DNA of 64,000 nt. Source: Escherichia phage phiLLS. The notes under the pieces were generated by a model, which saw nothing but the letters and a program-made list of their open reading frames with translations, did not search any database and was not told the DNA's origin. The stretch is from the sequence record NC_047822.1. One strand, given 5' to 3'. Shown here one piece after another: positions 1 to 12,967 of the stretch. Made by a program: the position numbers and the translations under genes. Position 1 is the first letter of the stretch. Every line of letters begins with the position of its first letter.

Positions 1-30
1 GATTGCTGGCGAATTTAATTAAAAATTTAT

Positions 31-72
31 TTGCTAAATGCTTATAAATTCTGTATAATATATTCATAAATT
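31..72 (+). promoter_or_regulatory. T5-type early promoter (TTGCTA-17bp-TATAAT plus downstream ATAAATT element)
   Basis: -35 TTGCTA at 31-36, -10 TATAAT at 54-59, conserved CATAAATT downstream; same architecture recurs more than 14 times in the window. Confidence 0.6.
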
Positions 73-297
73 AGAGAACAGCGAGCCGATTACGCTGAAC
101 TTGTCTTAATGTAAGATGCGTCGAGCACTAAGATTCGTTGAATAGAGTCGGTGGGTTAGTTGTAAAACTAGTACACAGGGGGCGGCAATCCCGGTTAGTG
201 GCTAGAACGTGTAAAATGAGGCGTCTGAAACCTCTCCCCTAAACTCTTCTCTAATTTATAAATAGTGGGGTGTGGAAATCACTTATGTAGTAACACT

Positions 298-369
298 GCC
301 GTCCTAGTATAATTGGTATTATCAAGCCGTAACCGGTGGAAGATGTAGGTTCGAATCCTACGGTCGGTA
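298..369 (+). ncRNA. tRNA-like element (canonical T-arm, fold unresolved)
   Basis: GTAGG-TTCGAAT-CCTAC T-arm at 345-361; acceptor pairing only 6/7 and no clean anticodon arm found by hand. Confidence 0.3.
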
Positions 370-872
370 AGAACTGGATAACTGATGCTTTTAACGTAAA
401 AGCTTCCGAGGTTAGTTGCGCACTGCCTAAACCACGCGGTAGTTGGTTCCAGACTAACCAACCAGTCTGCTGAATAGTTTTATTACGATTTAACTATGTC
501 CAGGCTAAAGAAGAACTTTAGAAGGTATTCTAGGATAGTGAAGTTCTTTCTCCATATCGGAGTAGTTTTTCAAGCTATCCACAAAGTGGGAAATGCTGAC
601 ATGAGAGATGTCACTAATGGTGCACAATAGCACAGGTAATTCGCGATAACTCCTGTTGAGTAGCAGCAAAAGGCGGGAAGTCATGACCCCAAGCCTAACC
701 GAGTCCTCAATATACCGCAGGACATAACCACTAAGTCACCCTGACTTAAACTGGAAAATAATAGACGTTACTGTATTTTGTCTTGAAATACTTAATGAGT
801 GAGACTTATGACTCTCCCGGTATCGTCTGTATTTTTAAGAGTTTTTTACGAGAGTTCTTAAAAATACTTAAA

Positions 873-947
873 CGGGGTGTAGTCTAAGGGAGAGGCAGGA
901 GTCTTCTAAATTCCTTTATGCAGGTTCGAATCCTGTCACCTCGGCCA
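873..947 (+). tRNA. tRNA-Arg (anticodon TCT)
   Basis: Hand-folded cloverleaf: acceptor CGGGGTG/CACCTCG, T-arm GCAGG-TTCGAAT-CCTGT, anticodon loop CTTCTAA, encoded CCA. Confidence 0.55.
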
Positions 948-981
948 ATTTTATTAACTGTAACTAAAACAAAGGAAATAT

Positions 982-1929
982 ATGTTTGCTACTAAAAATA
1001 TGAAAGAACTGACTTCTGAGCAGAAAGTAATTCGTACTATTAAACGTTGGGGTATTGGTGCTGTAGTTGGTTTAGCAGGTTTAGTCCTAGCTTTTAATTC
1101 ATATACTATTGTTTCTGATGGTACGGTTAAAACCCAAACATTCCTGGGTAAAGTAGACCCTAATCCTGTATTACCTGGTTTTCATCTTGTAAACCCATTT
1201 GCATCTTTCGATACTTTTAGTACAAAAGACATTGCTGTAAAATTAGATAAACTTCAGGTTCCTAGTCAGGATAAGTTTAAATCCACTGTTGACCTGACTG
1301 TTATGTTGCAGTTTGATGGTTCTAAGGCACCAATTAACCGTATTAACGCAGGTACTCAGGACCAGGCGCTAGACAAGTATGTAACTGAAAAATTACTGTC
1401 TACTATTCGTGAGTTTGGTAAATCTGTACCTAAAGCACAAGATTTATTTGATGCTAAAATTCAGGCTCAATTGCAAACTGCAATTCAACAGGAAGTTGAA
1501 GAGTATGCACGCCCATATGGTTACACAGTTAAGCAGGTGTTTCTTCAGGATATTACTTTGCCACCAGTAATTATGGAGCAAGTACAAAATACAAAAGTTC
1601 GTGAAGAACAAGTTAATGCGGCTAAAGCTGAATTGGCTCGTGTTGAACAAGAAGCACAGCAGAAAGTCAAACAAGCTGAAGCAGATCGTGAAGCACGTAA
1701 CAACCAAGCTATCGCTAATGAACGTGACGCCGATGCTAAGCTGTATGCAGCTAAGAAAGAAGCTGAAGCTAACGCCGCATTGCAACGTACCATTACTCCT
1801 GAGATGATTCGTTGGAAGCAATTGGAAGTCGAAATGATTCGTGCTCAGAAATATCAAGGTGGTGTACCTCAGACTGTGGTAGGTACTGGCTACGATGGTC
1901 AAATGATCATGGATATGCGTAATAAATAA
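982..1929 (+). CDS. SPFH/band-7 (HflC/prohibitin-like) membrane protein
   Basis: 315 aa; N-terminal TM helix, SPFH-like core, Ala/Glu/Lys-rich coiled-coil C-terminus; RBS AAGGAAATA before ATG. Confidence 0.55.
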   Translation: MFATKNMKELTSEQKVIRTIKRWGIGAVVGLAGLVLAFNSYTIVSDGTVKTQTFLGKVDPNPVLPGFHLVNPFASFDTFSTKDIAVKLDKLQVPSQDKFKSTVDLTVMLQFDGSKAPINRINAGTQDQALDKYVTEKLLSTIREFGKSVPKAQDLFDAKIQAQLQTAIQQEVEEYARPYGYTVKQVFLQDITLPPVIMEQVQNTKVREEQVNAAKAELARVEQEAQQKVKQAEADREARNNQAIANERDADAKLYAAKKEAEANAALQRTITPEMIRWKQLEVEMIRAQKYQGGVPQTVVGTGYDGQMIMDMRNK

Positions 1930-1954
1930 TATCCGCACGTAACATCTGAAGTAA

Positions 1955-1989
1955 GCCCTGCGTTCCCTGGAGAGCGCAGGGCTTTTCTG
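1955..1989 (+). terminator. Rho-independent terminator
   Basis: GCCCTGCG...CGCAGGGC hairpin followed by TTTTCTG. Confidence 0.6.
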
Positions 1990-2006
1990 TACTTAAGATA
2001 AAAGAA

Positions 2007-2040
2007 AAGCCCCTAAGTCTTTCTACTAGGGGCTTTATTG
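2007..2040 (-). terminator. Rho-independent terminator for the minus-strand module
   Basis: GCCCCTA...TAGGGGC hairpin with T-run on the minus strand, downstream of 2050..3684. Confidence 0.45.
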
Positions 2041-2049
2041 TTTGGTTTC

Positions 2050-2244
2050 TTAGAACCATATACTCTTGTTACAGCAACCACCCATACGGGAGGCCAATCT
2101 TGACTGAAAATCTACTCTAGGGGGCAGGATAAGAGTAGGCTTAAAGGCAAAGGGATTGAACGCCGGTATTTGTGTAAACATTGCTGGAGAGCAACAACGT
2201 GCTACAGGCATTGGGCAGCACGAAACAGATTTTCTGCAACACAT
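2050..2244 (-). CDS. small Cys-rich protein (64 aa)
   Basis: Four CC dipeptides; strong RBS AAGGAGA 6 nt upstream; immediately follows stop of 2254..2670. Confidence 0.45.
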   Translation of the reverse strand: MCCRKSVSCCPMPVARCCSPAMFTQIPAFNPFAFKPTLILPPRVDFQSRLASRMGGCCNKSIWF

Positions 2245-2253
2245 AATTTCTCC

Positions 2254-2670
2254 TTAGGAGTTATTACCACCATTTTGAGCTTTTGCAACTTGGCTTTGGC
2301 AGAAGCTATTAAACTTACCCATAAGTGATACAAGCTGTTTCCCATCCTCTGTCTTTGCGAAGTCTTCGAAAAGGGCTAGTACTGCCTGTCCTTCCGCAGA
2401 AACCTGCGGTTGTTGGGTTTGTTGCTGAACTTGCTGCTGAGCCACCTGTTGCTGCATTTGTTGAGGCATTTGCGACTGCCCGCTCATTTGCTGCATCATT
2501 TGCATAGGACTCACACTTCCAGGGTTTTGCTGGAGTTGTTGCTGCATCTGTTGCGCTTCTGCTAAACGCTGTTGCAATTGTTGTAAGTAGGGGTTATCCA
2601 GACCCGGAATGGGCTGCTGGGAGCCCCTACTTTGATTAAGTCCGTTATTTACAAAACCATATTTACTCAT
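2254..2670 (-). CDS. Gln-rich low-complexity protein (138 aa)
   Basis: Long Q-rich tract; RBS GGAGG upstream; codirectional with 2692..3684. Confidence 0.5.
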   Translation of the reverse strand: MSKYGFVNNGLNQSRGSQQPIPGLDNPYLQQLQQRLAEAQQMQQQLQQNPGSVSPMQMMQQMSGQSQMPQQMQQQVAQQQVQQQTQQPQVSAEGQAVLALFEDFAKTEDGKQLVSLMGKFNSFCQSQVAKAQNGGNNS

Positions 2671-2691
2671 AATGGGCTCCTCCCCCTAATA

Positions 2692-3684
2692 TTAAGCCGG
2701 CAGTTTAGCCTGCAGACCAGCCAGAGTCTGAGTGATAGCACCAAGACTTACAGCGATTTGATTAATTACCTGACCGTTAGCACCGTTACCCGCAGCGATT
2801 GCTTCACGTAGGCGACATGCATCTAACTCATCCTGAATACGAGCAGTAGTTACACCAGCGATAGCAGTCTGAAGTTCACAGCAACATTCAGCGATCTGAC
2901 GTTCCAGAGAGTTCTGGTTAGCACACATCTGAGCCTGAACAGCGGCAAACTGGTTATTAGTTTGTAAAGTCTGCTGGAAAGCGATCTGTGCAGAATCAAA
3001 CTTATCTTGTGCACGAGCTATCTGATTAGCTGCGAAAGATTGATCAATCTGGCGAGAAAGATCGAACTGACCCTGAATAACGTTGCGAGTTTCCTGACAG
3101 ATCTGATTAGACAGATTAGCACCTGTACCATAGATCGTAGTTAGTACAGACTGAGTATCACGGCTCTGGTTTTGGGATGTCTGGCTAAACCCATTGTTAA
3201 CTGCGCTTAAAACAGCTCCAGTACCCTGGTTAGCTTCTGTACGAGTAGTGTTAATAGCTGCTAGAATACTAGCGGTATCTTGGTTCTGAAGTACTGCATC
3301 AACTGCGGTACCATCACCAACTACACCACGTCCACCGAATCCACCGAAACCACCGAATCCGCCTGTTAATAGAGCACCGATTAGGATAGCTCCGAATAGT
3401 CCCATACCTTCACCACCGAAAGCACCTGCGTTTGCTGGGTAACCACCCAGTAGGCCAGGGAAGCCACTAGTAAATACGTTTACTGGTTCTTGCATTTTAT
3501 GTTTTCCATATTTATGACAATGTTCATCGTCATCTTCTTCATCATCGTGTTCACGATGTTTTTCTTCGTAGGCTCTGACCTTCTCCCACTTTTTCTTATC
3601 TGATTCCTCGTGACGGTGCAGTTCTGCTGCAACGCTAGCGACGGTCTCAGGACTCTTAGCTACTTCTTCTGTCATTTTTGACAC
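2692..3684 (-). CDS. hypothetical protein with acidic His-rich N-terminus, Gly-rich hydrophobic segment and Q/N-rich C-terminus (330 aa)
   Basis: Strong RBS AGGAGGTG; uninterrupted 993-nt ORF; own sigma70-like promoter upstream. Confidence 0.55.
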   Translation of the reverse strand: MSKMTEEVAKSPETVASVAAELHRHEESDKKKWEKVRAYEEKHREHDDEEDDDEHCHKYGKHKMQEPVNVFTSGFPGLLGGYPANAGAFGGEGMGLFGAILIGALLTGGFGGFGGFGGRGVVGDGTAVDAVLQNQDTASILAAINTTRTEANQGTGAVLSAVNNGFSQTSQNQSRDTQSVLTTIYGTGANLSNQICQETRNVIQGQFDLSRQIDQSFAANQIARAQDKFDSAQIAFQQTLQTNNQFAAVQAQMCANQNSLERQIAECCCELQTAIAGVTTARIQDELDACRLREAIAAGNGANGQVINQIAVSLGAITQTLAGLQAKLPA

Positions 3685-3736
3685 CTCCTAGTATATAGAA
3701 AATGTGTGTCTCTTTGATCACTCATCCATAACATAT

Positions 3737-3765
3737 ACTTTACACTACCCCAGCGAAAATGTCAA
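3737..3765 (-). promoter_or_regulatory. sigma70-like promoter TTGACA-17-TAAAGT for the minus-strand module
   Basis: RC of 3760-3765 is TTGACA, RC of 3737-3742 is TAAAGT, spacer 17 bp. Confidence 0.45.
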
Positions 3766-3882
3766 GGGGTCTTTAAAAATTGCCCCTGAATTTTTAGTGG
3801 GGTCACAAATTTTGGTCCTCACCACTTATCTGCTATCCTTAAGTGCCCTATGATTTTCCTCTAAAAAGTTAAAAAAATTTGA

Positions 3883-3925
3883 TTGCTTGAATGCTAAATT
3901 CTCTGTATAATATATCTATAAATTT
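3883..3925 (+). promoter_or_regulatory. T5-type early promoter
   Basis: TTGCTT at 3883-3888, TATAAT at 3906-3911, downstream ATAAATTTGAAAGAGG. Confidence 0.55.
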
Positions 3926-3941
3926 GAAAGAGGAACCAAAT

Positions 3942-4460
3942 ATGAATGTTGATGAGCTAACACAGCACCTCTTATCTAGAGGATTTGATACAGATAAATA
4001 TCATTGCTGGTTAAGTCCGGAAGGATGGCTAACAGTCCCGTTGTATGACTTCTCTGGGATGTTGAGGGGCTATCAAACTTATAATCCTTCTGCTCCAAAA
4101 GGTCATGGTAAGTGCCCCTTTGAAGCTAAATACTTTACTTATTCTACTACCCAGTGTGTATGGGGACTAGAAACTCTCAATGGAGATGAAAAAGTAGTAT
4201 TGATTGCTGAATCTGTATTTAAGGCAGTTGCGTTACATAATGCTGGTTATCCAGCCCTAGCAATGTTGGGTTCTTCTCCAGGAAAAGCGTTATTAAAGCA
4301 ACTGAAATTACTACCTTTTAAATTGGTAGCTGTCGGAGATAATGATCCTGCGGGTGAAAAATTTGCTAGAAAATTAAACGGCTTTGTTTCTCCCGTAGAT
4401 GTGGATGAGATGTCTACCGAAAACTTGAAAAATTTTCTTGCTATGAAGCTAAATTTCTAA
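3942..4460 (+). CDS. hypothetical protein, possible Toprim-like fold
   Basis: Start moved to the ATG after the promoter and RBS; VLIAES and VGDNDPAGEK motifs resemble Toprim Glu and DxD. Confidence 0.45.
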   Translation: MNVDELTQHLLSRGFDTDKYHCWLSPEGWLTVPLYDFSGMLRGYQTYNPSAPKGHGKCPFEAKYFTYSTTQCVWGLETLNGDEKVVLIAESVFKAVALHNAGYPALAMLGSSPGKALLKQLKLLPFKLVAVGDNDPAGEKFARKLNGFVSPVDVDEMSTENLKNFLAMKLNF

Positions 4461-4480
4461 TATAATATATCTTATAAATT
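4438..4480 (+). promoter_or_regulatory. T5-type early promoter driving a tRNA pair
   Basis: TTGCTA 4438-4443, TATAAT 4461-4466, spacer 17; tRNA begins at 4482. Confidence 0.55.
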
Positions 4481-4481
4481 C

Positions 4482-4570
4482 GGAAGAATAGCATAACGGT
4501 ATTGCAGCAGATTGCTAATCTGTCGGTTTGAAATATAGCCTTGTGGGTTCGATTCCCGCTTCTTCCGCCA
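4482..4570 (+). tRNA. tRNA-Ser (anticodon GCT), long variable arm
   Basis: Acceptor GGAAGAA/TTCTTCC, T-arm GTGGG-TTCGATT-CCCGC, anticodon loop TTGCTAA, 89 nt, CCA encoded. Confidence 0.6.
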
Positions 4571-4577
4571 AATTCTG

Positions 4578-4654
4578 GTTCTCAAGCTCATATGGTATGA
4601 GCACCCGGCTCATAACCGGAAGGTACGTAGGTTCGAATCCTCGGGGAGCCACCA
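4578..4654 (+). tRNA. tRNA with anticodon CAT (Met, fMet or Ile-lysidine)
   Basis: Acceptor GGTTCTC/GGGAGCC, T-loop TTCGAAT, anticodon loop CTCATAA. Confidence 0.55.
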
Positions 4655-4673
4655 AATTAAATAGAGGTCACAA

Positions 4674-4862
4674 ATGGATCTATATATAGTTTATGTTGTG
4701 TTTATCCAAGATAGAGAATACCCGGATGAATATAAAAAAGGGTATAGGTTGGCCAGAGCTACCTCTGAAGCCCAAGCTATGGATAAAGTGGCAGATTATA
4801 TGATTACGGTAGAAAACATACACTATATCGACTACCTTGAAGCCTCAAAAGTAATTGACTAA
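4674..4862 (+). CDS. hypothetical protein (62 aa)
   Basis: ORF with RBS-like AGAGG upstream. Confidence 0.4.
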   Translation: MDLYIVYVVFIQDREYPDEYKKGYRLARATSEAQAMDKVADYMITVENIHYIDYLEASKVID

Positions 4863-4869
4863 ACTACAC

Positions 4870-4946
4870 GGGGGTGTAATCGAATTGGCATAGGTACTGG
4901 ACTTAAAATTCAGGTTTTGTGGGTTCGAATCCCACCACCCCTACCA
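4870..4946 (+). tRNA. tRNA with anticodon TAA (Leu codon reader) in a 77-nt short-variable-arm scaffold
   Basis: Acceptor GGGGGTG/CACCCCT, T-arm GTGGG-TTCGAAT-CCCAC, anticodon stem CTGGA/TTCAG, loop CTTAAAA. Confidence 0.5.
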
Positions 4947-4961
4947 AACTAAGGAAATAAG

Positions 4962-5129
4962 ATGTATAGACATCCACCTCCGCCAACACGTCGTTCTAGA
5001 GAAGTTATCCTCATGGAATTGACTAAAAACTTCAAGGCAACTCTTGAAGATAGAGATCTAGGTACAGATGAAGACGTTGATTTCATTTGTAAACTATTAA
5101 AAATGAAGCTGGAGAAACATCATGGCTAA
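4962..5129 (+). CDS. hypothetical protein (55 aa)
   Basis: RBS AAGGAAATAAG; stop overlaps start of next ORF. Confidence 0.4.
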   Translation: MYRHPPPPTRRSREVILMELTKNFKATLEDRDLGTDEDVDFICKLLKMKLEKHHG

Positions 5130-5328
5130 CCGTGAAATTACTATGCAACGAATCATGACTAAAGGCATGATAGCCGAGGCAGGTATTGAACAAGAAGTAA
5201 AAGGCTATTACGAACAGATTAAGACTATTATAGACTCTGCTAAAAACACCGGAGAAAAAGAGCATGGTGCGGCAATTATGGCTATAACTCTTATTAGTCT
5301 AGACTTGGCCGAAGAATCTGGAGTTTAG
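5122..5328 (+). CDS. hypothetical protein (68 aa)
   Basis: ATG overlaps upstream stop, suggesting translational coupling. Confidence 0.45.
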   Translation: MANREITMQRIMTKGMIAEAGIEQEVKGYYEQIKTIIDSAKNTGEKEHGAAIMAITLISLDLAEESGV

Positions 5329-5358
5329 CTCCTCCAAACAGAATTTTTAAAAATGTAC

Positions 5359-5402
5359 TTGCCTTTTGCTTTAAATTTCTGATATAATAGTTATATAAAT
5401 TG
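5359..5402 (+). promoter_or_regulatory. T5-type early promoter
   Basis: TATAAT 5383-5388 with -35-like TTGCCT and downstream ATAAATTGATGGAGG. Confidence 0.5.
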
Positions 5403-5418
5403 ATGGAGGAGTTAACGA

Positions 5419-5694
5419 ATGCAAAATCGTGTTGTAGCAACTGGTATTGAAAGTGCAATCTGTAAATCCTGGGAAGGCTGGGAAGGTGAGATTGAATGGC
5501 TTTATTTCTATGATGTAGAACTTCTACCGGAAGTTAAAGCTAAATGTATTGAAGCTGGCATGGCTCCAGATGCAAAAGCTGATATTGATATTTTAATGTC
5601 TGAACTTAAAGGTCGTGTAGTTACCGTTAGTAATGAGGGCGAAGAAGTTTTCGAACTTCCGTTCTCCTTAACTGTCACTCCTAAGTTCGACTAA
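5419..5694 (+). CDS. hypothetical protein (91 aa)
   Basis: RBS GGAGGAG 8 nt upstream of ATG. Confidence 0.5.
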   Translation: MQNRVVATGIESAICKSWEGWEGEIEWLYFYDVELLPEVKAKCIEAGMAPDAKADIDILMSELKGRVVTVSNEGEEVFELPFSLTVTPKFD

Positions 5695-5724
5695 CTAATA
5701 CAGCACTGAGCAAGTTCTTTAAAA

Positions 5725-5775
5725 TTTGACTTGCTCAGTGCTATAAAACTTGATATAATAGTTATCTAATTTGGA
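5725..5775 (+). promoter_or_regulatory. T5-type early promoter driving a tRNA cluster
   Basis: TTGACT/TTGCTC then TATAAT 5754-5759; tRNAs follow. Confidence 0.45.
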
Positions 5776-5893
5776 AAGTTCTTTTTAAGGTAGTTCCTAC
5801 TTTAGTAGAGTAAATTTTTGGCAGATGGCCCCCACCATTTTACCGATAACTCCTAGTCAGTGCGGCAACACTGGCTACCTTAAAGAGAATTTT

Positions 5894-5981
5894 GGGCGTT
5901 TATTCCGTAAGTGGTAGCGGAGGGGATTGTAAATCCCTGGTCATTGCGACTCGAGTGGTTCGACTCCATTAACGCCCACCA
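5894..5981 (+). tRNA. tRNA-Tyr (anticodon GTA), long variable arm
   Basis: Acceptor GGGCGTT/AACGCCC, T-loop TTCGACT, anticodon loop TTGTAAA, 88 nt. Confidence 0.55.
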
Positions 5982-5988
5982 ATTTAAT

Positions 5989-6063
5989 GCACCTATCGTC
6001 TAGCGGTTAGGACACCACTCTTTCACAGTGGGAACACGAGTTCGACCCTCGTTGGGTGTGCCA
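5989..6063 (+). tRNA. tRNA-Glu (anticodon TTC)
   Basis: Acceptor GCACCTA/TGGGTGT, T-arm ACGAG-TTCGACC-CTCGT, anticodon loop CTTTCAC. Confidence 0.55.
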
Positions 6064-6072
6064 ATTAATAAT

Positions 6073-6143
6073 TGGGGTACGCATAGGTTGCAAATGGGCC
6101 TCCAAAACCCATGAAAAGGTTTCGAATACCTTTACCCCTGCCA
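6073..6143 (+). tRNA. tRNA-Trp (anticodon CCA)
   Basis: T-arm AAGGT-TTCGAAT-ACCTT, anticodon loop CTCCAAA; first acceptor pair mismatched. Confidence 0.45.
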
Positions 6144-6149
6144 AAATTT

Positions 6150-6224
6150 GCACCTTTAGCTGAGATGGATTAGCGCTTGCCTGAAGAGCTTGAGAGGTTC
6201 GTTCGATTCGAACAGGGTGCACCA
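6150..6224 (+). tRNA. tRNA-Phe (anticodon GAA)
   Basis: Acceptor GCACCTT/AGGGTGC, D-stem GCTG/TAGC, anticodon loop CTGAAGA (weak stem), T-arm GTTCG-TTCGATT-CGAAC. Confidence 0.5.
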
Positions 6225-6241
6225 ATTTGAAGGAGCTGCTG

Positions 6242-6514
6242 ATGCATACTGAAAACTTCTTTATTTACTGCGCGGATAAGTCGCTGAAACGTAGAATTAA
6301 CAAAGTCTATCATTATCGTGTTAGTCAACAGCCTTATGTATATGCTTTTGACGGTGATCACATTCCACTAGAACAATTATCTTGTGATTACATGATATTG
6401 AAGAACTTTGACGAGACAAAGATCTCAAGCGTTCATAATCGACAGAATCCATTAACGTGGAAATATAAGAAGAAAAAGAAAGGCATCAAATTCTTAAAAA
6501 ATGTAGTTGCTTAG
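6242..6514 (+). CDS. hypothetical protein (about 90 aa)
   Basis: Start set at ATG after RBS AAGGAG; follows tRNA-Phe directly. Confidence 0.4.
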   Translation: MHTENFFIYCADKSLKRRINKVYHYRVSQQPYVYAFDGDHIPLEQLSCDYMILKNFDETKISSVHNRQNPLTWKYKKKKKGIKFLKNVVA

Positions 6515-6550
6515 TTTCCAAAAGTTCTGTATAATAATTACATAAATTGA
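6507..6550 (+). promoter_or_regulatory. T5-type early promoter
   Basis: TTGCTT 6507-6512, TATAAT 6530-6535, spacer 17. Confidence 0.55.
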
Positions 6551-6583
6551 ACTGGAGAAGCAACATGACAGAATAAGATAAAC

Positions 6584-6659
6584 CGACCGTTGGCTGAATG
6601 GCTTAGGCGAAGGATTGCAAATCCTTTTTATGTGAGTTCAAATCTCATGCGGTCGTCCA
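6584..6659 (+). tRNA. tRNA-Cys (anticodon GCA)
   Basis: Acceptor CGACCGT/GCGGTCG, T-arm GTGAG-TTCAAAT-CTCAT, anticodon loop TTGCAAA. Confidence 0.55.
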
Positions 6660-6680
6660 AATTACTAAAGGAAAGAAGTA

Positions 6681-7199
6681 GTGCATACAAAAGTTTTTGA
6701 TAGTTTGGTAAAGAAAGGCATTGTTACTAATAAGCCTTTCTGTATAACCGCAGAACTAATCCAAAGATTTATGGAAGAATATATAAATCTTTCAGGAACT
6801 AATGGTAATACCAAAAAGAATACAAATACTATGTATTCGAGAAAACTTGCCGCACTTTCCTTTATAAAGTTTAAGCAGGAAAATAAACTTCCTATTTCTG
6901 AAGGTTTTGTATACTGTATTAGTAATCCTGCATGGAAAAATCAGTATAAAATAGGTATGAGTCAAAATCCAAAAGAGAGATTAGCTCAATATCAGACCTA
7001 TTCCCCCTATAGGGATTATAAATTAGAGCATTGGTCGTTTTGGTTTGACAAACGAAAAGGTGAAAAACTAATTCACCAGTATTTCAAAGATTTAAAAGAA
7101 CATGAGTGGTTTAGTATAAATTCTAGGGATCTTAGTAAATATCTAGAACGTATTAACTCTAGTTCTGACTTATATGGTTCCTTAGCTCTAATTGGTTAG
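6681..7199 (+). CDS. GIY-YIG-like (T5orf172-type) endonuclease domain protein
   Basis: GTG start with RBS AAAGGAAAG; VYCISNP...YKIGMS motif; 3' end overlaps tRNA-Asn by about 24 nt. Confidence 0.5.
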   Translation: MHTKVFDSLVKKGIVTNKPFCITAELIQRFMEEYINLSGTNGNTKKNTNTMYSRKLAALSFIKFKQENKLPISEGFVYCISNPAWKNQYKIGMSQNPKERLAQYQTYSPYRDYKLEHWSFWFDKRKGEKLIHQYFKDLKEHEWFSINSRDLSKYLERINSSSDLYGSLALIG

Positions 7200-7253
7200 A
7201 GCGGCATCTTGTTAAGTTGAGGGTTGCTGGTTCGAATCCAGCAGGAACCGCCA
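7176..7253 (+). tRNA. tRNA-Asn (anticodon GTT)
   Basis: Acceptor GGTTCCT/AGGAACC, D-stem GCTC/GAGC, anticodon loop TTGTTAA (weak stem), T-arm GCTGG-TTCGAAT-CCAGC. Confidence 0.5.
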
Positions 7254-7355
7254 AATTCTGTGTAGAGTTAAGTAAACCGGTAGCCAACCAGCTATCATTG
7301 CTGACATCGAATTCAGCCACAGATACCATTTTCATTAATAACTGAGGAAATAAGC

Positions 7356-7541
7356 ATGTCCAAGAATGTAATTGCGCAGCTAGAAGTTCATCGTGATAGC
7401 ACTATCAACAATATTGAAGTTGAAAAGAAATACATCGAAGAACTTAAACACGATATACTAATAAGTCTCAATCGTCTTAATGTACGAAAAGAGTTTCTTA
7501 AAGAACTTAATGCAGCTATTGAAAAACTCAAAGCTGAGTAA
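7356..7541 (+). CDS. hypothetical protein (61 aa)
   Basis: RBS GAGGAAATAAG upstream of ATG. Confidence 0.4.
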   Translation: MSKNVIAQLEVHRDSTINNIEVEKKYIEELKHDILISLNRLNVRKEFLKELNAAIEKLKAE

Positions 7542-7550
7542 ATGAATTAT

Positions 7551-7627
7551 GCGACCGGGGCTGGCTTGGTAATGGTACTCCCCTGTCACGGGAGGGAATG
7601 TGGGTTCAAATCCCATCGGTCGCGCCA
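7551..7627 (+). tRNA. tRNA-Asp (anticodon GTC)
   Basis: Acceptor GCGACCG/CGGTCGC, anticodon stem CTCCC/GGGAG with loop CTGTCAC, T-loop TTCAAAT. Confidence 0.6.
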
Positions 7628-7652
7628 AATTAATTTAGTATGAGAATATACT

Positions 7653-8000
7653 ATGCGTAATGCCAAAGAAGAGCTGTTACTTGCCTTAAAAAATACTAAT
7701 TCTGAAGTTAAATGTATTAAAATAGAATTCGGGTATTATGGGGATAAAAAAGTTTGGGTATTGCCTTTAGGTTACACAGAAGAAGATATTGAGGATTTTC
7801 TTAATAACCTAGACTTTAAATATGACTCTGGGTACGGTGGACAATTACTTTATGGTAATGTATGGTTTGCCGATGGAACTTGGCTAGAACGTGGAGAATA
7901 TGATGGTGCTGAGTGGTGGGAATACAAAGCCACACCAGCAATTCCAGAGGAATGCCGAACAATTAATGGTGAAGTAGATAATACTTTACGGTTAAACTAA
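7653..8000 (+). CDS. hypothetical protein (115 aa)
   Basis: ORF between tRNAs; compositional fit to neighbours. Confidence 0.45.
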   Translation: MRNAKEELLLALKNTNSEVKCIKIEFGYYGDKKVWVLPLGYTEEDIEDFLNNLDFKYDSGYGGQLLYGNVWFADGTWLERGEYDGAEWWEYKATPAIPEECRTINGEVDNTLRLN

Positions 8001-8007
8001 TAAAATT

Positions 8008-8243
8008 TCAGTGCAGAACACGGAGCTAGCAATTCGGAAGTGCTGACTCATGATAAGCTGCCTATGTACTTGCGAAGCGGTCGTGTCCAAGACTCGGACT
8101 CTTGCACTGAAAACAATCAAACATTCTAGCGTGGTTGATGGGGAAACCAGCTTGGCTAGGGCAGAAGCTCGTTCGATTCGAGTGAAAGAATGGTTCTCGT
8201 AAGTCCGCACAAGTGATAACAGGTTCGAGTCCTGTCTAGAATG
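8008..8243 (+). ncRNA. structured RNA / tRNA-like region (unresolved)
   Basis: Long-range inverted repeat TCAGTGCAG/TTGCACTGA (8010/8102) and two T-loop-like motifs (TTCGATT near 8176, ACAGG-TTCGAGT-CCTGT at 8219-8235) with no standard cloverleaf. Confidence 0.3.
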
Positions 8244-8262
8244 ACATATTCTGGAGATTCTA

Positions 8263-8429
8263 TGGATTATGAAGAGTTAGATAAATTAGCTGATACATTA
8301 TCAGAACTATCTGATAATGTAGTAATAAAAGATTCTAGGATAGACAGTTTTATTGCTGATTATCGTAATGGTATTATCTCTAGGCAAGAACTAGTAGATA
8401 AAACTTATCAATATTTAAAGGGAAAGTAA
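8263..8429 (+). CDS. hypothetical acidic protein
   Basis: ORF track starts at 8241 inside the tRNA-like element; the internal ATG at 8263 is more plausible. Confidence 0.35.
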
Positions 8430-8447
8430 ACGAAAGTTTACTTATTA

Positions 8448-8547
8448 TGTAGGTTCCGATAGATCGGCGGGTCTATTCTGGCATTTAAGAGAAGTCTCGC
8501 AAACTTCTTTGTCAGCCGTGGGGTTGGTAGCCTCCAGGTGGCCTACA
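8448..8547 (+). ncRNA. tRNA-like / structured RNA candidate (about 100 nt)
   Basis: Perfect 7-bp closing stem TGTAGGT/GCCTACA; internal 6-bp stem AGAAGT/ACTTCT with 7-nt loop CTCGCAA; no canonical T-loop. Confidence 0.3.
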
Positions 8548-8574
8548 CAATAAGTAAATTTATTAAAAATTCAT

Positions 8575-8620
8575 TTGCTATTCTGCTTTATTATCTGTAT
8601 AATATATTTTATAAAGTGAA
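8575..8620 (+). promoter_or_regulatory. T5-type early promoter
   Basis: TTGCTA 8575-8580, TATAAT 8598-8603, spacer 17. Confidence 0.55.
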
Positions 8621-8635
8621 GAGAAGGAAAGCAAA

Positions 8636-8794
8636 ATGAAACACAAGATAGCTCAAGTTTTTATGGCATTATGGTGTATGCCAATAGCTATAACAGCATT
8701 TAATCTAGATACTTTTACTATAGAAGAAAAATGTATCGGATTAGTTAGCGGTTTTAGTATGCTGGGCTTATCTTTGCTGTGGTTAAAGAAATAA
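8636..8794 (+). CDS. small membrane protein (52 aa)
   Basis: Not in ORF track (under 60 aa); RBS GAGAAGGAAAG; two hydrophobic segments. Confidence 0.4.
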   Translation: MKHKIAQVFMALWCMPIAITAFNLDTFTIEEKCIGLVSGFSMLGLSLLWLKK

Positions 8795-8798
8795 TATT

Positions 8799-8876
8799 CT
8801 CCGTGTAGCTCAGTTTGGCCAGAGCGTTTCGTTTGGGGCGATAGGGTCGGGGGTTCAAATCCTCCCACGGAGACCA
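8799..8876 (+). tRNA. tRNA-Pro (anticodon TGG)
   Basis: Acceptor CTCCGTG/CACGGAG, D-stem GCTC/GAGC, anticodon loop TTTGGGG, T-arm GGGGG-TTCAAAT-CCTCC. Confidence 0.55.
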
Positions 8877-8882
8877 AACAAT

Positions 8883-8960
8883 TGCGGGTTAGATCTCTGG
8901 TAGAGATCGCTAGTCTCATAAGCTAGAAAGAGGTAGGTTCGATTCCTGCACCCGCTTCCA
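8883..8960 (+). tRNA. tRNA with anticodon CAT (second copy)
   Basis: Anticodon stem CTAGT/GCTAG with loop CTCATAA; T-arm GTAGG-TTCGATT-CCTGC. Confidence 0.5.
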
Positions 8961-8980
8961 TTTTAATAGAGGATTTCGAA

Positions 8981-9148
8981 ATGAAAGTATTTCGATTAGT
9001 AGTAAGTGACAAACGTTTAGGTAATAATACCTCAAGATCCTTACTTGCACATTATGGAAAAGATGAAAAAGAAGTAATGGCGGAGTTTGGGATTAATCAT
9101 TCTTACTTAAAAGTCCATTCTATTAAAGAAGTATACAATGGTTACTAA
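8981..9148 (+). CDS. hypothetical protein (55 aa)
   Basis: Small ORF between tRNAs. Confidence 0.35.
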   Translation: MKVFRLVVSDKRLGNNTSRSLLAHYGKDEKEVMAEFGINHSYLKVHSIKEVYNGY

Positions 9149-9149
9149 T

Positions 9150-9228
9150 AGATCGCTAGCTCAATAGGTTTAGTAGCATCCGACTTTTAATCGGAAGGTT
9201 CTGGGTTCGAGTCCCAGGCGATCTACCA
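9150..9228 (+). tRNA. tRNA-Lys (anticodon TTT)
   Basis: Acceptor AGATCGC/GCGATCT, anticodon stem TCCGA/TCGGA with loop CTTTTAA, T-arm CTGGG-TTCGAGT-CCCAG. Confidence 0.55.
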
Positions 9229-9246
9229 ATTTCAAGAAAAACGCAG

Positions 9247-9296
9247 TTGCTTGATGCTTAATTTCTTGTTATAATATTTATATAAATTGATGCGAA
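9247..9296 (+). promoter_or_regulatory. T5-type early promoter with no ORF downstream
   Basis: TTGCTT 9247-9252, TATAAT 9270-9275, spacer 17; followed by about 300 nt non-coding before tRNA-Ala. Confidence 0.55.
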
Positions 9297-9608
9297 AATA
9301 GCTGCCTAGATACCAGGTGTATGACGTCTACACTAGCAGAGCTACCGAAAAAGAGATCCTCAGGATAAACGTCGTAGCAAAATTAGTCTGGTATCCATCA
9401 ATTTAGTTCACTAAGGTATTAGCTCGACCTAGGACTGGCTGCCAAAAAGCACGATCCCTACGATTCGGGAGAAGTTCTAGATTAGTCCACTAGATTCAGC
9501 GGCAACTGAATAGTGTATTGGGTTTGCGAGATGACGCAGTTCCTTCCGCTCGAAGCGAAGGTGCTGTAGTTACGCCGAGCTAATAGCCTTAGTAAACTAA
9601 AGAATTTG
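9297..9608 (+). ncRNA. candidate promoter-driven non-coding RNA or tRNA-operon leader (about 310 nt)
   Basis: No ORF with RBS and no canonical tRNA fold; lies between a strong promoter and tRNA-Ala. Confidence 0.3.
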
Positions 9609-9684
9609 GGGGAATGGGTCTGCATGGAGTGGACACCTCGCTTGCACCGAGGACATCAGAACGGTTCGATTCCGTTATTCTCCA
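9609..9684 (+). tRNA. tRNA-Ala (anticodon TGC)
   Basis: Acceptor GGGGAAT/ATTCTCC, anticodon stem CCTCG/CGAGG with loop CTTGCAC, T-arm AACGG-TTCGATT-CCGTT; CCA not encoded. Confidence 0.55.
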
Positions 9685-9692
9685 CAAAATAC

Positions 9693-9770
9693 GCGTGATT
9701 GATGGAATTGGCATACATACCGTCCTTAGAAGTCGGGTTTTGAGGGTTCGAATCCCTTGTCACGCACCAA
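9693..9770 (+). tRNA. tRNA with anticodon TAG (Leu codon reader) in a short-variable-arm scaffold
   Basis: Acceptor GCGTGAT/GTCACGC, T-arm GAGGG-TTCGAAT-CCCTT, anticodon loop CTTAGAA (4/5-bp stem). Confidence 0.45.
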
Positions 9771-9845
9771 ATTTGATGGTCAGAGTAAATTAAACCTACT
9801 ATCTCGGTTGAGCTGTTTTAATGGGTTCGAATCCCAGCGGGGCGT
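9771..9845 (+). ncRNA. tRNA-like element (canonical T-arm, no acceptor pairing found)
   Basis: TGGG-TTCGAAT-CCCA at 9822-9836 but no complementary 5' acceptor strand; possible pseudo-tRNA. Confidence 0.25.
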
Positions 9846-9881
9846 AACTGCCTGGTGTGATAGAGGCATCATCTTATTATT

Positions 9882-9972
9882 GGAAGAGCAAATCGAATTG
9901 GCGACGAAAACCGCTTGGAAAGTGGCTGACTGGTAAAACGGCTTGAGAGTTCAAATCTCTCCTCTTCCGCCA
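9882..9972 (+). tRNA. tRNA-Ser (anticodon GGA), long variable arm
   Basis: Acceptor GGAAGAG/CTCTTCC, T-arm GAGAG-TTCAAAT-CTCTC, anticodon loop TTGGAAA, 91 nt. Confidence 0.55.
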
Positions 9973-9984
9973 AACAATTTATAT

Positions 9985-10079
9985 GGTAGGTCAATCCAAC
10001 GGCTGGCGCTGGACTCCGACTTGAAATCGGTTGATCGTAGTGATACGGTGTAAGGGTTCGATCCCCTTACCTACCTCCA
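9985..10079 (+). tRNA. tRNA-Ser (anticodon TGA), long variable arm
   Basis: Acceptor GGTAGGT/ACCTACC, T-arm AAGGG-TTCGATC-CCCTT, anticodon loop CTTGAAA, 95 nt. Confidence 0.5.
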
Positions 10080-10084
10080 AATCT

Positions 10085-10215
10085 TGGAATATGCCGGAAT
10101 TGGTAGACGGGACTGCCGAATAGGTTTACTAGGAACATCCACTCCTAGAAATATACCTTAAAAGCGGTTGAGTTAAATGGTCTAACTCATGAAGGTTCAA
10201 ATCCTTCTATTCCTT
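10085..10215 (+). ncRNA. atypical tRNA-like region (about 130 nt)
   Basis: D-loop-like AATTGGTAGACG, good T-arm GAAGG-TTCAAAT-CCTTC at 10192-10208, but body too long; perfect 7-bp hairpin TGAGTTA/TAACTCA. Confidence 0.3.
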
Positions 10216-10444
10216 GATACATCAATGGCTCAAAGTGTAACGGTGCTATTTGATGCACTTGGAAAGACTTTCCCGACATGCGTTCGGGGGTAAGCTTCTG
10301 AGGCTAGAATAGAAGAGTTTCTGGGAGCCGCCACAATCGAAAATTCGTACTCGTCTTGAGCTGCGTGCAATAGGAGATAACTTGATTAGTATTCTAGAAC
10401 ATGCTAATTGAGGATGGTTTCGCTAACCCTGCGAGTTTTCAATT

Positions 10445-10521
10445 GTGGCTATATCATAATTGGTTAATGATCCTGATTGTGAATCAGGCCTATGTGGATT
10501 CGAATTCCACTAGCCACCCCA
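10445..10521 (+). tRNA. tRNA-His (anticodon GTG)
   Basis: Acceptor GTGGCTA/TAGCCAC, D-stem TCAT/ATGA, anticodon stem CCTGA/TCAGG with loop TTGTGAA, T-arm GTGGA-TTCGAAT-TCCAC. Confidence 0.6.
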
Positions 10522-10546
10522 AATTAATTTAAATAGGAAATAAAAT

Positions 10547-10741
10547 ATGGCTGATTTCTGCAAACAATGCTCCATTGATATGTGGGGCAGAGATACTGGT
10601 GACTTAGCTGGTCTGATTACAGAAGCCGAAGTCAAAGAAGGTTATGGTGCAGTTGTGGTTTGCGAAGGATGCGGAGTCATTCGAGTAGACCATAAAGGTA
10701 AGCGCCTTGAAGAACCTGAGCCAGTTACTCTATTTCCATAG
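10547..10741 (+). CDS. hypothetical protein with zinc-ribbon-like Cys pairs (64 aa)
   Basis: CKQC...CEGC motifs; RBS AGGAAATAAAAT. Confidence 0.45.
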   Translation: MADFCKQCSIDMWGRDTGDLAGLITEAEVKEGYGAVVVCEGCGVIRVDHKGKRLEEPEPVTLFP

Positions 10742-10754
10742 AGTAAAGAATTAT

Positions 10755-10830
10755 TGGGATGTAGATCAATTGGCAGATCGTCGGCCTCTGACTCCGAAGG
10801 TTCCACGTTCGATCCGTGGCATCCCAGCCA
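10755..10830 (+). tRNA. tRNA-Gln (anticodon CTG)
   Basis: Acceptor TGGGATG/CATCCCA, T-arm CCACG-TTCGATC-CGTGG, anticodon loop CTCTGAC. Confidence 0.55.
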
Positions 10831-10836
10831 AATTAT

Positions 10837-10912
10837 TGGAGAGTAGTGTAACGGTTAGCACAACGGCCTTTGACTCCGTTAATGGTAGGTTCGATTCCTC
10901 CTTCTCCAGCCA
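10837..10912 (+). tRNA. tRNA-Gln (anticodon TTG)
   Basis: Acceptor TGGAGAG/TTCTCCA, anticodon loop CTTTGAC, T-loop TTCGATT. Confidence 0.5.
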
Positions 10913-10929
10913 ACTTAAAAGGTAAAAAT

Positions 10930-11490
10930 GTGAAGGTAATACCGGAATTTCCATTATATAGTATATCTGAGGATGGTAAAGTTTGGTCAACTTATTCTAA
11001 TAAGTTTTTATCCTCTTATATTAACAATGATGGGTATCCCTGTTATAAATTACATAAGAAGGGGGTTCAGTATACTCAACTAATACATAGATTATTAGCT
11101 AGAGTATACAAAGATCTGCCTTCTCTGGATTCTGACCTAGAGGTAGATCACAAAGATACTAATATTCTTAACTATGCACTAGAGAATATACAAGTTCTCA
11201 GTAAAGAGGATCACAGAAAGAAAACCTTACTAGATAATGGGTATACTGCGTATAACAAGGTATGTCCAACTTGCTCAGGATACAAAGATCCCGGAGCTAT
11301 TCAGTGTAAGGGATGTTCTTCGCTATCCCAAGTAAAGAATAAAGATGTTACTGCTGAGCAAATAGAATACTGGGTGTCCAAGTATTCATGGGTTAGAGCA
11401 GCCAAAGAATTTGGATACTCAGATAATGGACTTCGTAAAAGGTATAAATCCCTTACTGGTAAAGATCCAAAAACAATAAAACGCGGTTAG
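10930..11490 (+). CDS. HNH homing endonuclease
   Basis: HNH motif DHKDTN...N...EDH; probable GTG start after tRNA-Gln (no in-frame ATG); sits among tRNAs as T5 HNH nickases do. Confidence 0.55.
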   Translation: MKVIPEFPLYSISEDGKVWSTYSNKFLSSYINNDGYPCYKLHKKGVQYTQLIHRLLARVYKDLPSLDSDLEVDHKDTNILNYALENIQVLSKEDHRKKTLLDNGYTAYNKVCPTCSGYKDPGAIQCKGCSSLSQVKNKDVTAEQIEYWVSKYSWVRAAKEFGYSDNGLRKRYKSLTGKDPKTIKRG

Positions 11491-11554
11491 CCTCATGGTG
11501 GGGACTCAGCCTTCCAAGCTGATGGAGAGGGTTCGATTCCCTCTAGCCGCTCCA
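11483..11554 (+). tRNA. tRNA-Gly (anticodon TCC)
   Basis: Acceptor GCGGTTA/TAGCCGC, anticodon stem TCAGC/GCTGA with loop CTTCCAA, T-arm GAGGG-TTCGATT-CCCTC; overlaps HNH stop. Confidence 0.55.
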
Positions 11555-11570
11555 ACTTTAAGGAAACACT

Positions 11571-11822
11571 ATGCACGTTTTTGAGTTTCGTAATAAAAGT
11601 ACTGATAAGCGAGTTATCATTATTGGAGAAACATATCGAGCATATGAACAAACTGACGGCTCTGTTATCTTGAATGATGAGAAAGGAGGTTTTAGCTTTT
11701 ATCCAGAAGAACCTTATGAAGAGTTTCGAAAACAATTTAACCTAGACTGGAGAAAGCATTTAAACACTGTTGCTCCATCTGTAGTATTGCCAACTACCAG
11801 TACTGTACCCTCTAATGGCTGA
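11571..11822 (+). CDS. hypothetical protein (83 aa)
   Basis: RBS AAGGAAACACT before ATG. Confidence 0.45.
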   Translation: MHVFEFRNKSTDKRVIIIGETYRAYEQTDGSVILNDEKGGFSFYPEEPYEEFRKQFNLDWRKHLNTVAPSVVLPTTSTVPSNG

Positions 11823-11979
11823 CAACCTAAAAGTAAAGATTGATAAACAAAAGAAACGTGTAGAAGTAGAGATTGGCGAAGAACGTGTTGCCTTTACTTT
11901 CGAGTTTCTTCAGCAGTTGGCAATGACAGTAATGTCAGATAAATCCCCTGTATTTGAAAAAGAAATCCCGTTGAAATAA
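11815..11979 (+). CDS. hypothetical protein (54 aa)
   Basis: Not in ORF track; ATG overlaps upstream TGA (ATGGCTGA); hairpin follows. Confidence 0.35.
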   Translation: MADNLKVKIDKQKKRVEVEIGEERVAFTFEFLQQLAMTVMSDKSPVFEKEIPLK

Positions 11980-11989
11980 CGGGATTATC

Positions 11990-12064
11990 GCTCCTAAAGC
12001 ATTGCTGGCGATGCAGTTGCCTTGTAAGCATCTGAACCGGGTTCGATTCCTGGTGGGAGCACCA
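11990..12064 (+). tRNA. tRNA-Thr (anticodon TGT)
   Basis: Acceptor GCTCCTA/TGGGAGC, anticodon loop CTTGTAA, T-arm CCGGG-TTCGATT-CCTGG. Confidence 0.55.
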
Positions 12065-12078
12065 AATTTAAAAATTCA

Positions 12079-12125
12079 TTTGCTTTCTCCCTTATTTATT
12101 GCTATAATATTTATATAAATTAATG
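12079..12125 (+). promoter_or_regulatory. T5-type early promoter
   Basis: TTGCTT then TATAAT 12103-12108, downstream ATAAATTAATGAGAGGG. Confidence 0.55.
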
Positions 12126-12138
12126 AGAGGGAAACCAA

Positions 12139-12429
12139 ATGAAACGTTATCTTTCTGTAATATTCCAAACTGGTGGCCAAAGATACACCTATGAATTTCC
12201 ATCCTCTTGGAAAATCAAAGAGGGTGATCAAGTAGTAGTGCTAACACCGCGTGAAGGATATAAAGTAGTAACGGTTAAACAAGTATTTCCAAAAGATCAT
12301 GAACCAGCTAAAGGCATCCGCTATAAGATGATTCATGGTGTGGTTCGTCAAGTACCACGAACTGAGGTAGAAGTAGATAAGACTGGAGAAACTAAATTCC
12401 ATTATACTTCTTACTTAGACAGTGTGTGA
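12139..12429 (+). CDS. hypothetical protein (96 aa)
   Basis: RBS GAGAGGGAAACC after promoter. Confidence 0.5.
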   Translation: MKRYLSVIFQTGGQRYTYEFPSSWKIKEGDQVVVLTPREGYKVVTVKQVFPKDHEPAKGIRYKMIHGVVRQVPRTEVEVDKTGETKFHYTSYLDSV

Positions 12430-12444
12430 TGTAAATATTTTAAT

Positions 12445-12521
12445 GCTTCGGTAGCTTAGCGATCTAAAGCACTCGGCCGATAACCGAGAGATCGGGGGTT
12501 TAAATCCCTCCCGGAGTACCA
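12445..12521 (+). tRNA. tRNA-Ile (anticodon GAT)
   Basis: Acceptor GCTTCGG/CCGGAGT, anticodon stem CTCGG/CCGAG with loop CCGATAA, T-arm GGGGG-TTTAAAT-CCCTC. Confidence 0.5.
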
Positions 12522-12617
12522 AATTTAGGAATTAAGACTATGCGTCCAGGAAAGTTTAAAAAAGCTAATTGGTCTAAAGAGTATAAAGAATACTTACTTA
12601 GTCTAGTAAAACATAAC

Positions 12618-12693: not shown

Positions 12694-12730
12694 TTAAAAT
12701 AGCTAGAGATAGCTAAATTTAGGAGCAGCT

Positions 12731-12925: not shown

Positions 12926-12967
12926 AGAATAAAGAGCTGAGCCAAATTCTAACATCGGGGAGATCTA

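Follow-up and report, generated by a model that had tools for sequence, protein, structure and literature searches.

Short-armed tRNAs with leucine anticodons in a T5-like phage are best read as leucine tRNAs that lost their variable arm

Can a tRNA that carries a leucine anticodon, but that has the small variable loop of a class I tRNA, be a genuine leucine tRNA in an enterobacterial host? The question is raised by two genes in the tRNA cluster of Escherichia phage phiLLS (sequence record NC_047822.1), of which a stretch of 64,000 nucleotides (i.e. the window) was analysed. A preliminary description of this stretch had pointed out that anticodons for leucine codons reside here in scaffolds with a short variable arm, and had considered both atypical leucine tRNAs and tRNAs with an altered identity. 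According to a review the long arm is found on tRNALeu everywhere but in animal mitochondria (PMC9976931), and the one bacterial exception described, from Streptomyces, has been portrayed as a rare case that depends on a specialised leucyl-tRNA synthetase, LeuRS (PMC6614811).

The window represents a T5-like phage (Demerecviridae, Tequintavirus-like) that shares 96-97% identity with a large number of Escherichia and Salmonella phages and has a G+C content of 39%. ARAGORN recovers 21 tRNA genes, all on the plus strand, between positions 873 and 12693. The two genes in question and their parts are as follows:

4870..4946, plus strand: tRNA-Leu(UAA), class I, 77 nt including the encoded CCA (ARAGORN; Rfam RF00005, 57.4 bits; sequence parse)
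4879..4895, plus strand: D-arm of the UAA tRNA, with a 3-bp stem (A10-U25, U11-G24, C12-G23) and G13 and A22 unpaired
4904..4906, plus strand: anticodon TAA of the UAA tRNA, which reads UUA/UUG, in the loop CTTAAAA with A36-A37-A38 (ARAGORN, parse)
4914..4918, plus strand: 5-nt variable loop GTTTT of the UAA tRNA, the last base being U48, the partner of A15
4943, plus strand: discriminator A73 of the UAA tRNA, followed by the encoded CCA at 4944-4946
9693..9769, plus strand: tRNA-Leu(UAG), class I, 77 nt including the encoded CCA (ARAGORN; Rfam, 47.5 bits; sequence parse)
9702..9718, plus strand: D-arm of the UAG tRNA, with a 3-bp stem (ATG/CAT), G13 and A22 unpaired and the loop GAATTGGCATA, identical to that of the UAA tRNA
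9723..9733, plus strand: U30 (9723) and U40 (9733) of the UAG tRNA, which form a U-U mismatch in the anticodon stem
9727..9729, plus strand: anticodon TAG of the UAG tRNA, which reads at least CUA/CUG, in the loop CTTAGAA (ARAGORN, parse)
9737..9741, plus strand: 5-nt variable loop GTTTT of the UAG tRNA, with U48 at the end
9766, plus strand: discriminator A73 of the UAG tRNA, followed by the encoded CCA at 9767-9769

Both genes are bona fide tRNAs. Their covariance scores exceed the Rfam RF00005 gathering score of 29, and direct reading of the sequence yields in both cases a 7-bp acceptor stem, a 17-nt D-arm and a canonical T-arm; the 11-nt D-loop of the UAA tRNA, GAATTGGCATA, holds A14, A15, G18G19 and A20a. 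Where a class II tRNA has a variable region of more than 10 nt that forms a stem-loop, the region measures 5 nt in both genes, and both combine a leucine anticodon with the variable loop of 4-5 nt that defines a type I tRNALeu. ARAGORN, Rfam and the direct reading thus agree with the preliminary description on the anticodons (TAA and TAG), on the anticodon loops and on the 5-nt variable regions. It had given the length as 77-78 nt and the end of the second gene as 9770; the cloverleaves stand, and both genes measure 77 nt, the second ending at 9769. Its remark that the cluster holds no class II Leu tRNA is borne out for the window as a whole by ARAGORN and Rfam: the sole tRNAs with a long arm are Ser(gct) (4482-4570), Tyr(gta) (5894-5981) and a Ser(UGA)-like gene (9985-10075). 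Thermodynamic folding did not recover the cloverleaf for either gene (z = -1.2 and -1.4), and, because such weak z-scores are normal for single tRNAs, we gave preference to the covariance and comparative evidence.

What remains of a leucine tRNA when the arm is taken away can be read from a hand alignment with the six tRNA-Leu genes of E. coli K-12. The D-arms of the phage pair have the same length and register as those of all six host genes, U8, A14, A15, G18G19, A20a, A22, U48 and A73 are common to all eight tRNAs, and the variable stem-loop alone is missing from the phage pair. The U8:A14 and A15:U48 pairs are present in both phage tRNAs. [quoted passage not shown]

The overall likeness of the tRNA bodies was scored with hidden Markov models (HMMs) built per isotype from phage tRNAs, in which the anticodon was masked and the variable region deleted, and in which the Leu model was trained on class II Leu tRNAs only. 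Leu came out on top for both genes (37.0 versus 32.2 bits and 38.6 versus 25.1 bits), in a setting where the models returned the own isotype for 13 of 16 control tRNAs of the window and where the class II Leu training set shares the motif AATTGG by selection, a motif that is also found in 4 of the 6 E. coli tRNA-Leu genes. Similarly, tRNAscan-SE isotype scores published for the FelixO1-like relatives in phage Sf14 put Leu first, with 67.4, 60.2 and 49.1 bits (PMC12482277). Judged by these sequence features, the two genes are best read as genuine leucine tRNAs that lost the variable arm, i.e. the atypical leucine tRNAs of the preliminary description, with a leucine identity set, a Leu-like body and leucine semantics of their codons (see below).

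To see how far such tRNAs extend, the viral contigs of IMG/VR were scanned with a pattern consisting of a Leu-type D-loop, a UAA or UAG anticodon loop and a distance to the T-loop as in class I. This pattern is matched by at least 120 viral-contig loci, and a class II control pattern likewise by at least 120. Running ARAGORN on the loci yielded at least 357 unique tRNAs with a leucine anticodon, at least 154 of which have a variable region of 6 nt or less and at least 201 one of 9 nt or more. As a signature we used five features that the pattern does not jointly enforce, namely an unpaired 13:22, A22, A15, U48 and A73. The share of tRNAs having all five, in each group among the matches listed, is:

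Class I Leu, n = 154: 65%
Class I Leu(CAA), which fall outside the pattern selection, n = 23: 65%
Class II Leu, n = 201: 49%
Non-Leu class I tRNAs from the same loci, n = 1412: 1%
Class II Ser, n = 124: 0%
Class II Tyr, n = 53: 0%

Among the matches listed, 13:22 is unpaired in 97% of the class I Leu tRNAs versus 19% of the other class I tRNAs, and a short variable region in the same loci is found in 1 of 125 Ser and 2 of 56 Tyr tRNAs. Arm loss is therefore specific to Leu. For instance, Felixounavirus humlepung (host E. coli K-12) has class I Leu tRNAs for tag, caa and taa and keeps the arms of Ser and Tyr, Seunavirus SSE121 has a class I Leu(tag), and Pseudomonas phage ZC08 (Schitoviridae) combines one class II Leu with one class I Leu.

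Within the matches listed, 94 unique class I Leu tRNAs have the geometry of the window tRNAs. Positions U8, A14, A15, G18, G19, A20a, U33, A35, U48, T54-C56, A58 and A73 are invariant in these 94, and A15:U48 and U8:A14 each occur in 94 of 94. Compensatory changes are found at all 20 helix pairs, with a covariation score of 0.935, whereas shuffled controls reach 0.22 and slid partners no more than 0.19. The 99% of helix cells that are paired is an inflated figure which, like the similarity of the D-loops, is partly built in, because the collection scans were seeded by a pattern derived from the window tRNAs and ARAGORN reports cloverleaves only. Informative in spite of this are the features left free by the pattern, the CAA isoacceptors outside its selection, the contrast with Ser and Tyr, and the compensatory changes. 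Apparent variable loops of 2-4 nt and an apparent G73 are artefacts of the fixed-offset parse, which misplaces the 3' side of genes that have no encoded CCA.

In the case of bacterial genomes, most of the matches listed are class I tRNALeu(UAA) genes that occur singly on the chromosomes of Actinomycetota (among them Nocardia, Gordonia, Mycobacterium, Rhodococcus, Amycolatopsis and Arthrobacter). Their sequence is near-constant, with the D-arm GCCCAATTGGCAGAGGC, a 5-nt variable loop that ends in GT, and A73. The remaining bacterial matches listed lie in dense arrays of 19-31 tRNAs per 8 kb. These sequence matches suggest that type I tRNALeu is far commoner in Actinomycetota than the single Streptomyces case implies.

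Among the close relatives of the phage the short arm is one of several alleles. The curated record of T5 holds one tRNA-Leu, L1(UAG), of 85 nt with a 13-nt variable arm and adjoining tRNA-Ala(UGC), and no Leu(UAA); the window thus carries alternative alleles. The comparison with T5 that was proposed in the preliminary description therefore has a divided outcome: the short-arm genes of the window hold up, and T5 itself has the class II form of Leu(UAG) and no counterpart for Leu(UAA). The alleles are distributed over phage records as follows:

Class I Leu(UAA) of the window type: 323 phage records at 95% identity or more
Class I Leu(UAG) of the window type: 160 phage records at 95% identity or more
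Class II Leu(UAG) of the T5 type, 85 nt: 52 phage records at 95% identity or more
Leu(UAG) of the NBEco002 type, 83 nt: 14 phage records at 99% identity or more

Given that 323 and 160 records hold genes this similar, chance is not an issue, and both genes are 99-100% conserved across hundreds of phage genomes. The class I and class II alleles of Leu(UAG) share one locus beside tRNA-Ala (in the window the UAG gene starts 7 nt downstream of tRNA-Ala(UGC)) in close relatives that have the same hosts. Short-arm and long-arm alleles are interchangeable at this locus, and the short-arm allele is the commoner. The possibility that the UAG gene is a simple deletion derivative of T5 L1(UAG) was rejected: the differences between the two sequences extend over their whole length, acceptor and T stems included, which indicates allele replacement and not a recent deletion. 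In the case of Leu(UAA), a 264-bp segment of the window (4676-4939, comprising a 62-codon ORF at 4674-4862 and the tRNA) takes the place of a 692-bp cassette of T5 (10373-11064) that includes the HNH homing-endonuclease gene hegA, between flanks that are 92-97% identical. Homing endonucleases may drive the turnover of tRNA alleles in this region. Likewise, hegC of T5 abuts the tRNA-Leu(UAG) of that phage.

The close relative NBEco002 has an 81-nt tRNA-Tyr (2275-2355) with a variable region of just 10 nt and an 83-nt tRNA-Leu(UAG) (6833-6915) with one of 11 nt, so that intermediate arm lengths exist within this phage group. A recent capture of the UAA tRNA from the host was ruled out: a BLAST search of 5,426 E. 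coli genomes found no chromosomal relative, the only matches being of 23 nt to the T-arm and located on plasmids.

With respect to the role of the two tRNAs, the preliminary description had linked them to codon usage, and the counts agree. In 57 ORFs of the window (14,290 codons) UUA makes up 29.6% and CUA 23.4% of the leucine codons, jointly 53%. The corresponding figures for E. coli, quoted here as general background, are about 13% and 4%. On these figures the phage carries exactly the two isoacceptors for the leucine codons that it over-uses and that are rare in the host. We consider it quite probable that both genes encode working arm-less leucine tRNAs that are charged by the LeuRS of the host and decode UUA/UUG and at least CUA/CUG. 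After transcription and processing the tRNAs would receive leucine from the host LeuRS (i.e. the E. coli or Salmonella enzyme), which would read A73 and the tertiary core (U8:A14, A15:U48, the G18G19 register, A20a and the D/T-loop contacts) and neither the anticodon nor the arm, and the charged tRNAs would then decode leucine codons that are over-used by this AT-rich phage and for which the host has minor tRNAs. As to the reason for the loss, we infer that tRNALeu could shed the arm because LeuRS can do without it, and that the arm would be kept in the phage tRNASer and tRNATyr because SerRS and the tyrosyl-tRNA synthetase (TyrRS) use it. The loss may have occurred repeatedly, or once with subsequent spread by horizontal exchange.

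Charging by the host LeuRS is the most likely route, and one published result bears on it directly. The type I tRNALeu(CAA) of Streptomyces coelicolor was not charged by the E. coli enzyme, the authors stated that EcLeuRS 'only charges type II tRNALeu', and crystal contacts were described between its C-terminal domain and nucleotides 47f-47i of the variable arm (PMC6614811). These nucleotides are absent from both window tRNAs. The Streptomyces result need not transfer, because the two kinds of tRNA are different sequence subfamilies: in the D-loop and variable loop the window type has G13, CAUA and GUUUU, versus C13, CAGA and NNAGU in the actinobacterial type. A factor encoded elsewhere in the phage genome, beyond the window, may also play a part.

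The likeness to known systems is partial in each case. The canonical class II tRNALeu (E. coli leuZ/UAA and leuW/UAG, and T5 L1(UAG)) has the same anticodons, D-stem, 11-nt D-loop, U48 and A73, and T5 L1(UAG) occupies the same genomic slot beside tRNA-Ala as the UAG gene of the window. The class II tRNAs differ in having a variable stem-loop of 11-15 nt and a length of 85-87 nt, whereas the window tRNAs have the 5-nt GTTTT and 77 nt, and the UAG tRNA differs in addition in its A37 and its U30-U40 mismatch. The type I tRNALeu(CAA) of S. coelicolor has a 5-nt variable loop, as in the window, and coexists with type II in one cell (PMC6614811); it is, however, chromosomal, and the LeuRS that charges it has a leucine-specific domain of a specialised kind, whereas the window tRNAs are phage-borne and must work with an enterobacterial LeuRS. 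Animal mitochondrial tRNALeu(UUR/CUN) likewise has a short variable loop and the determinants A14 and A73 (PMC9976931), but it combines a degenerate elbow with a dedicated LeuRS, while the D/T elbow of the phage tRNAs is fully canonical. Similar in design are the arm-deleted variants of E. coli tRNALeu (Larkin 2002; Asahara 1998; Tocchini-Valentini 2000), which retain A73 and the core and are LeuRS substrates (PMC9976931). Those variants are laboratory constructs, whereas the window genes are natural, conserved and widespread.

The anticodon arm of the UAG tRNA has peculiarities of its own. Among the 94 class I Leu sequences (matches listed) it is the only one in which 30:40 is unpaired. The U30-U40 mismatch is kept in the homologs of Seunavirus SSE121 and Felixounavirus humlepung, in which the adjacent pair 29:41 covaries from G-C to A-U; conserved next to a covarying pair, the mismatch looks like a selected feature and appears to be under selection. 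The loop of the phage UAG tRNA (CUUAGAA, 9725-9731) differs from that of E. coli leuW (UUUAGGU) at positions 32, 37 and 38, position 37 being A in the phage tRNA and G in leuW. This G37 of leuW is the site of m1G37. With the mismatch and with A37 in place of the G37 of the host, the efficiency or the modification state of the UAG tRNA may differ. The same difference between the host and phage UAG loops has been tabulated for phage Sf14 (PMC12482277).

These peculiarities are part of an alternative in which leucine identity is accepted and the loss of the arm is attributed mainly to defence: with their class I shape, and in the UAG tRNA also with the changed anticodon loop and the U30-U40 mismatch, the tRNAs would escape nucleases or shutoff activities (of the host, of a competitor or of the phage itself) that recognise the class II tRNALeu of the host, and would thereby sustain leucine decoding when host tRNALeu is destroyed. 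The differences at positions 32, 37 and 38 and the conservation of the mismatch in three phage genera fit this idea. Phage tRNAs, including those of T5, are documented in the literature to rescue infection from tRNA-cleaving defences such as PARIS and Retron-Eco7 and to carry changes in the anticodon loop, and eukaryotic Schlafens select type II tRNAs. Against it, no nuclease of bacteria that singles out tRNALeu or long variable arms turned up in the literature searched, evasion is no obvious driver in the many Actinomycetota that hold a single chromosomal class I tRNALeu (among the matches listed), and the supply of codons alone explains which two isoacceptors are carried. All in all we regard this alternative as unlikely. 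Slightly more doubtful still is its fullest form, in which the arm-less tRNALeu is a counter-defence device of the phage whose arm was repeatedly deleted and whose anticodon stem-loop was retuned while it stayed a substrate of LeuRS; if true, this would amount to a shape-based escape of tRNAs that goes beyond the known point changes in the anticodon loop. A link to bacterial Schlafens was considered and dropped, as the study concerned deals with cleavage of the anticodon arm, is silent on long-arm specificity and gives no support.

Much less credible is an altered identity, the second possibility of the preliminary description. In this reading tRNAs with leucine anticodons would be charged, or deliberately mischarged, with another amino acid, and UUA and CUA would be recoded in the phage proteins. 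The hallmark arm of class II is indeed missing, EcLeuRS is reportedly inactive on one type I tRNALeu (PMC6614811), and the UAA anticodon has A35 and A36 in common with tRNAPhe. The meaning of the codons was read from alignments of the portal protein (65 homologs) and the large terminase (110 homologs), using homologs of at most 80% identity. At positions encoded by UUA and CUA, respectively 61% and 68% of the homolog residues are Leu, followed by I, V, M and F; at positions encoded by the other four leucine codons Leu accounts for 54-66%, with the same profile. UUA and CUA positions are therefore indistinguishable from those of CUG, CUU, CUC and UUG, and the alignments of the two proteins give no sign of reassignment. 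With the two codons making up more than half of all leucine codons, recoding would moreover be proteome-wide. In addition, the LeuRS determinants are all present and invariant in the 94 class I Leu tRNAs (matches listed), the tRNA body is most Leu-like both by the isotype HMMs and in the relatives scored earlier (PMC12482277), and the tRNAs have neither a G3:U70 pair nor a long arm for SerRS.

Finally, it is scarcely tenable that the genes have lost their function and represent decayed tRNA genes, or tRNA-like processing signals without a use in translation. For this reading one may cite that stable RNAs resembling tRNAs and a single tRNA annotated as a pseudogene occur in the tRNA region of T5, that folding by itself gave no cloverleaf and that the UAG tRNA has a stem mismatch. 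Against it stand the near-identity of the genes in hundreds of phage genomes, the encoded CCA, the intact invariant positions, the high covariance-model scores, the compensatory changes in every helix family-wide (94 tRNAs, matches listed) and the conservation of the mismatch itself beside a covarying pair.

To return to the reading as working leucine tRNAs, several of its elements are already known: the genes are routinely annotated, type I tRNALeu occurs in animal mitochondria and in Streptomyces, and arm-deleted constructs are substrates of LeuRS. In the searchable literature, most subscription journals lying outside it, we found no description of a natural arm-less tRNALeu in enterobacterial phages or of its breadth across viruses, and a 2025 paper on the tRNAs of one FelixO1-like phage does not mention the variable arm (PMC12482277). 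It is clear that arm-less tRNALeu genes are under purifying selection in hundreds of coliphages and Salmonella phages and in many uncultivated viruses. By implication type I tRNALeu would be a substrate of the enterobacterial LeuRS in vivo, and we put this forward as a prediction. The family can be viewed as a natural experiment that confirms the identity rules established in vitro, the arm being lost solely in that class II family of which the synthetase ignores the arm. It also provides compact natural Leu scaffolds for engineering. For annotation it is of relevance that the records of relatives label the two genes tRNA-Leu(taa) and tRNA-Leu(tag), and that in some phage records such genes appear as tRNA-Xle, as tRNA-OTHER or not at all.

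Some observations concern the other tRNAs of the cluster. The Ser(UGA)-like class II gene (9985-10075, plus strand; anticodon loop CUUGAAA), the counterpart of T5 tRNA S1(UGA), was missed by ARAGORN and detected solely in a permissive Rfam search, below the gathering score, its top match being the tRNA-Sec model (38.3 bits versus a gathering score of 47); Rfam also gives a tRNA-like match of lower score at 10147-10215 (25.2 bits). Two further tRNAs missed by ARAGORN were found by Rfam at 298-369 and 4577-4651 (plus strand; 35.5 and 40.3 bits), the latter at the site of the annotated tRNA-Ile2(CAU) of T5. The reverse holds for Tyr (5894-5981) and Ala (9609-9685), which were called by ARAGORN and were absent from the Rfam scan of 1-16000 at the gathering threshold; the Ala gene scored 36.3 bits in a permissive scan of 9600-10500, above the gathering score of 29 bits. 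This tRNA-Ala(UGC) (9609-9685, plus strand) has the G3:U70 identity pair and is followed by CAAAA, with no encoded CCA, while almost all other tRNAs of the cluster do have an encoded CCA.
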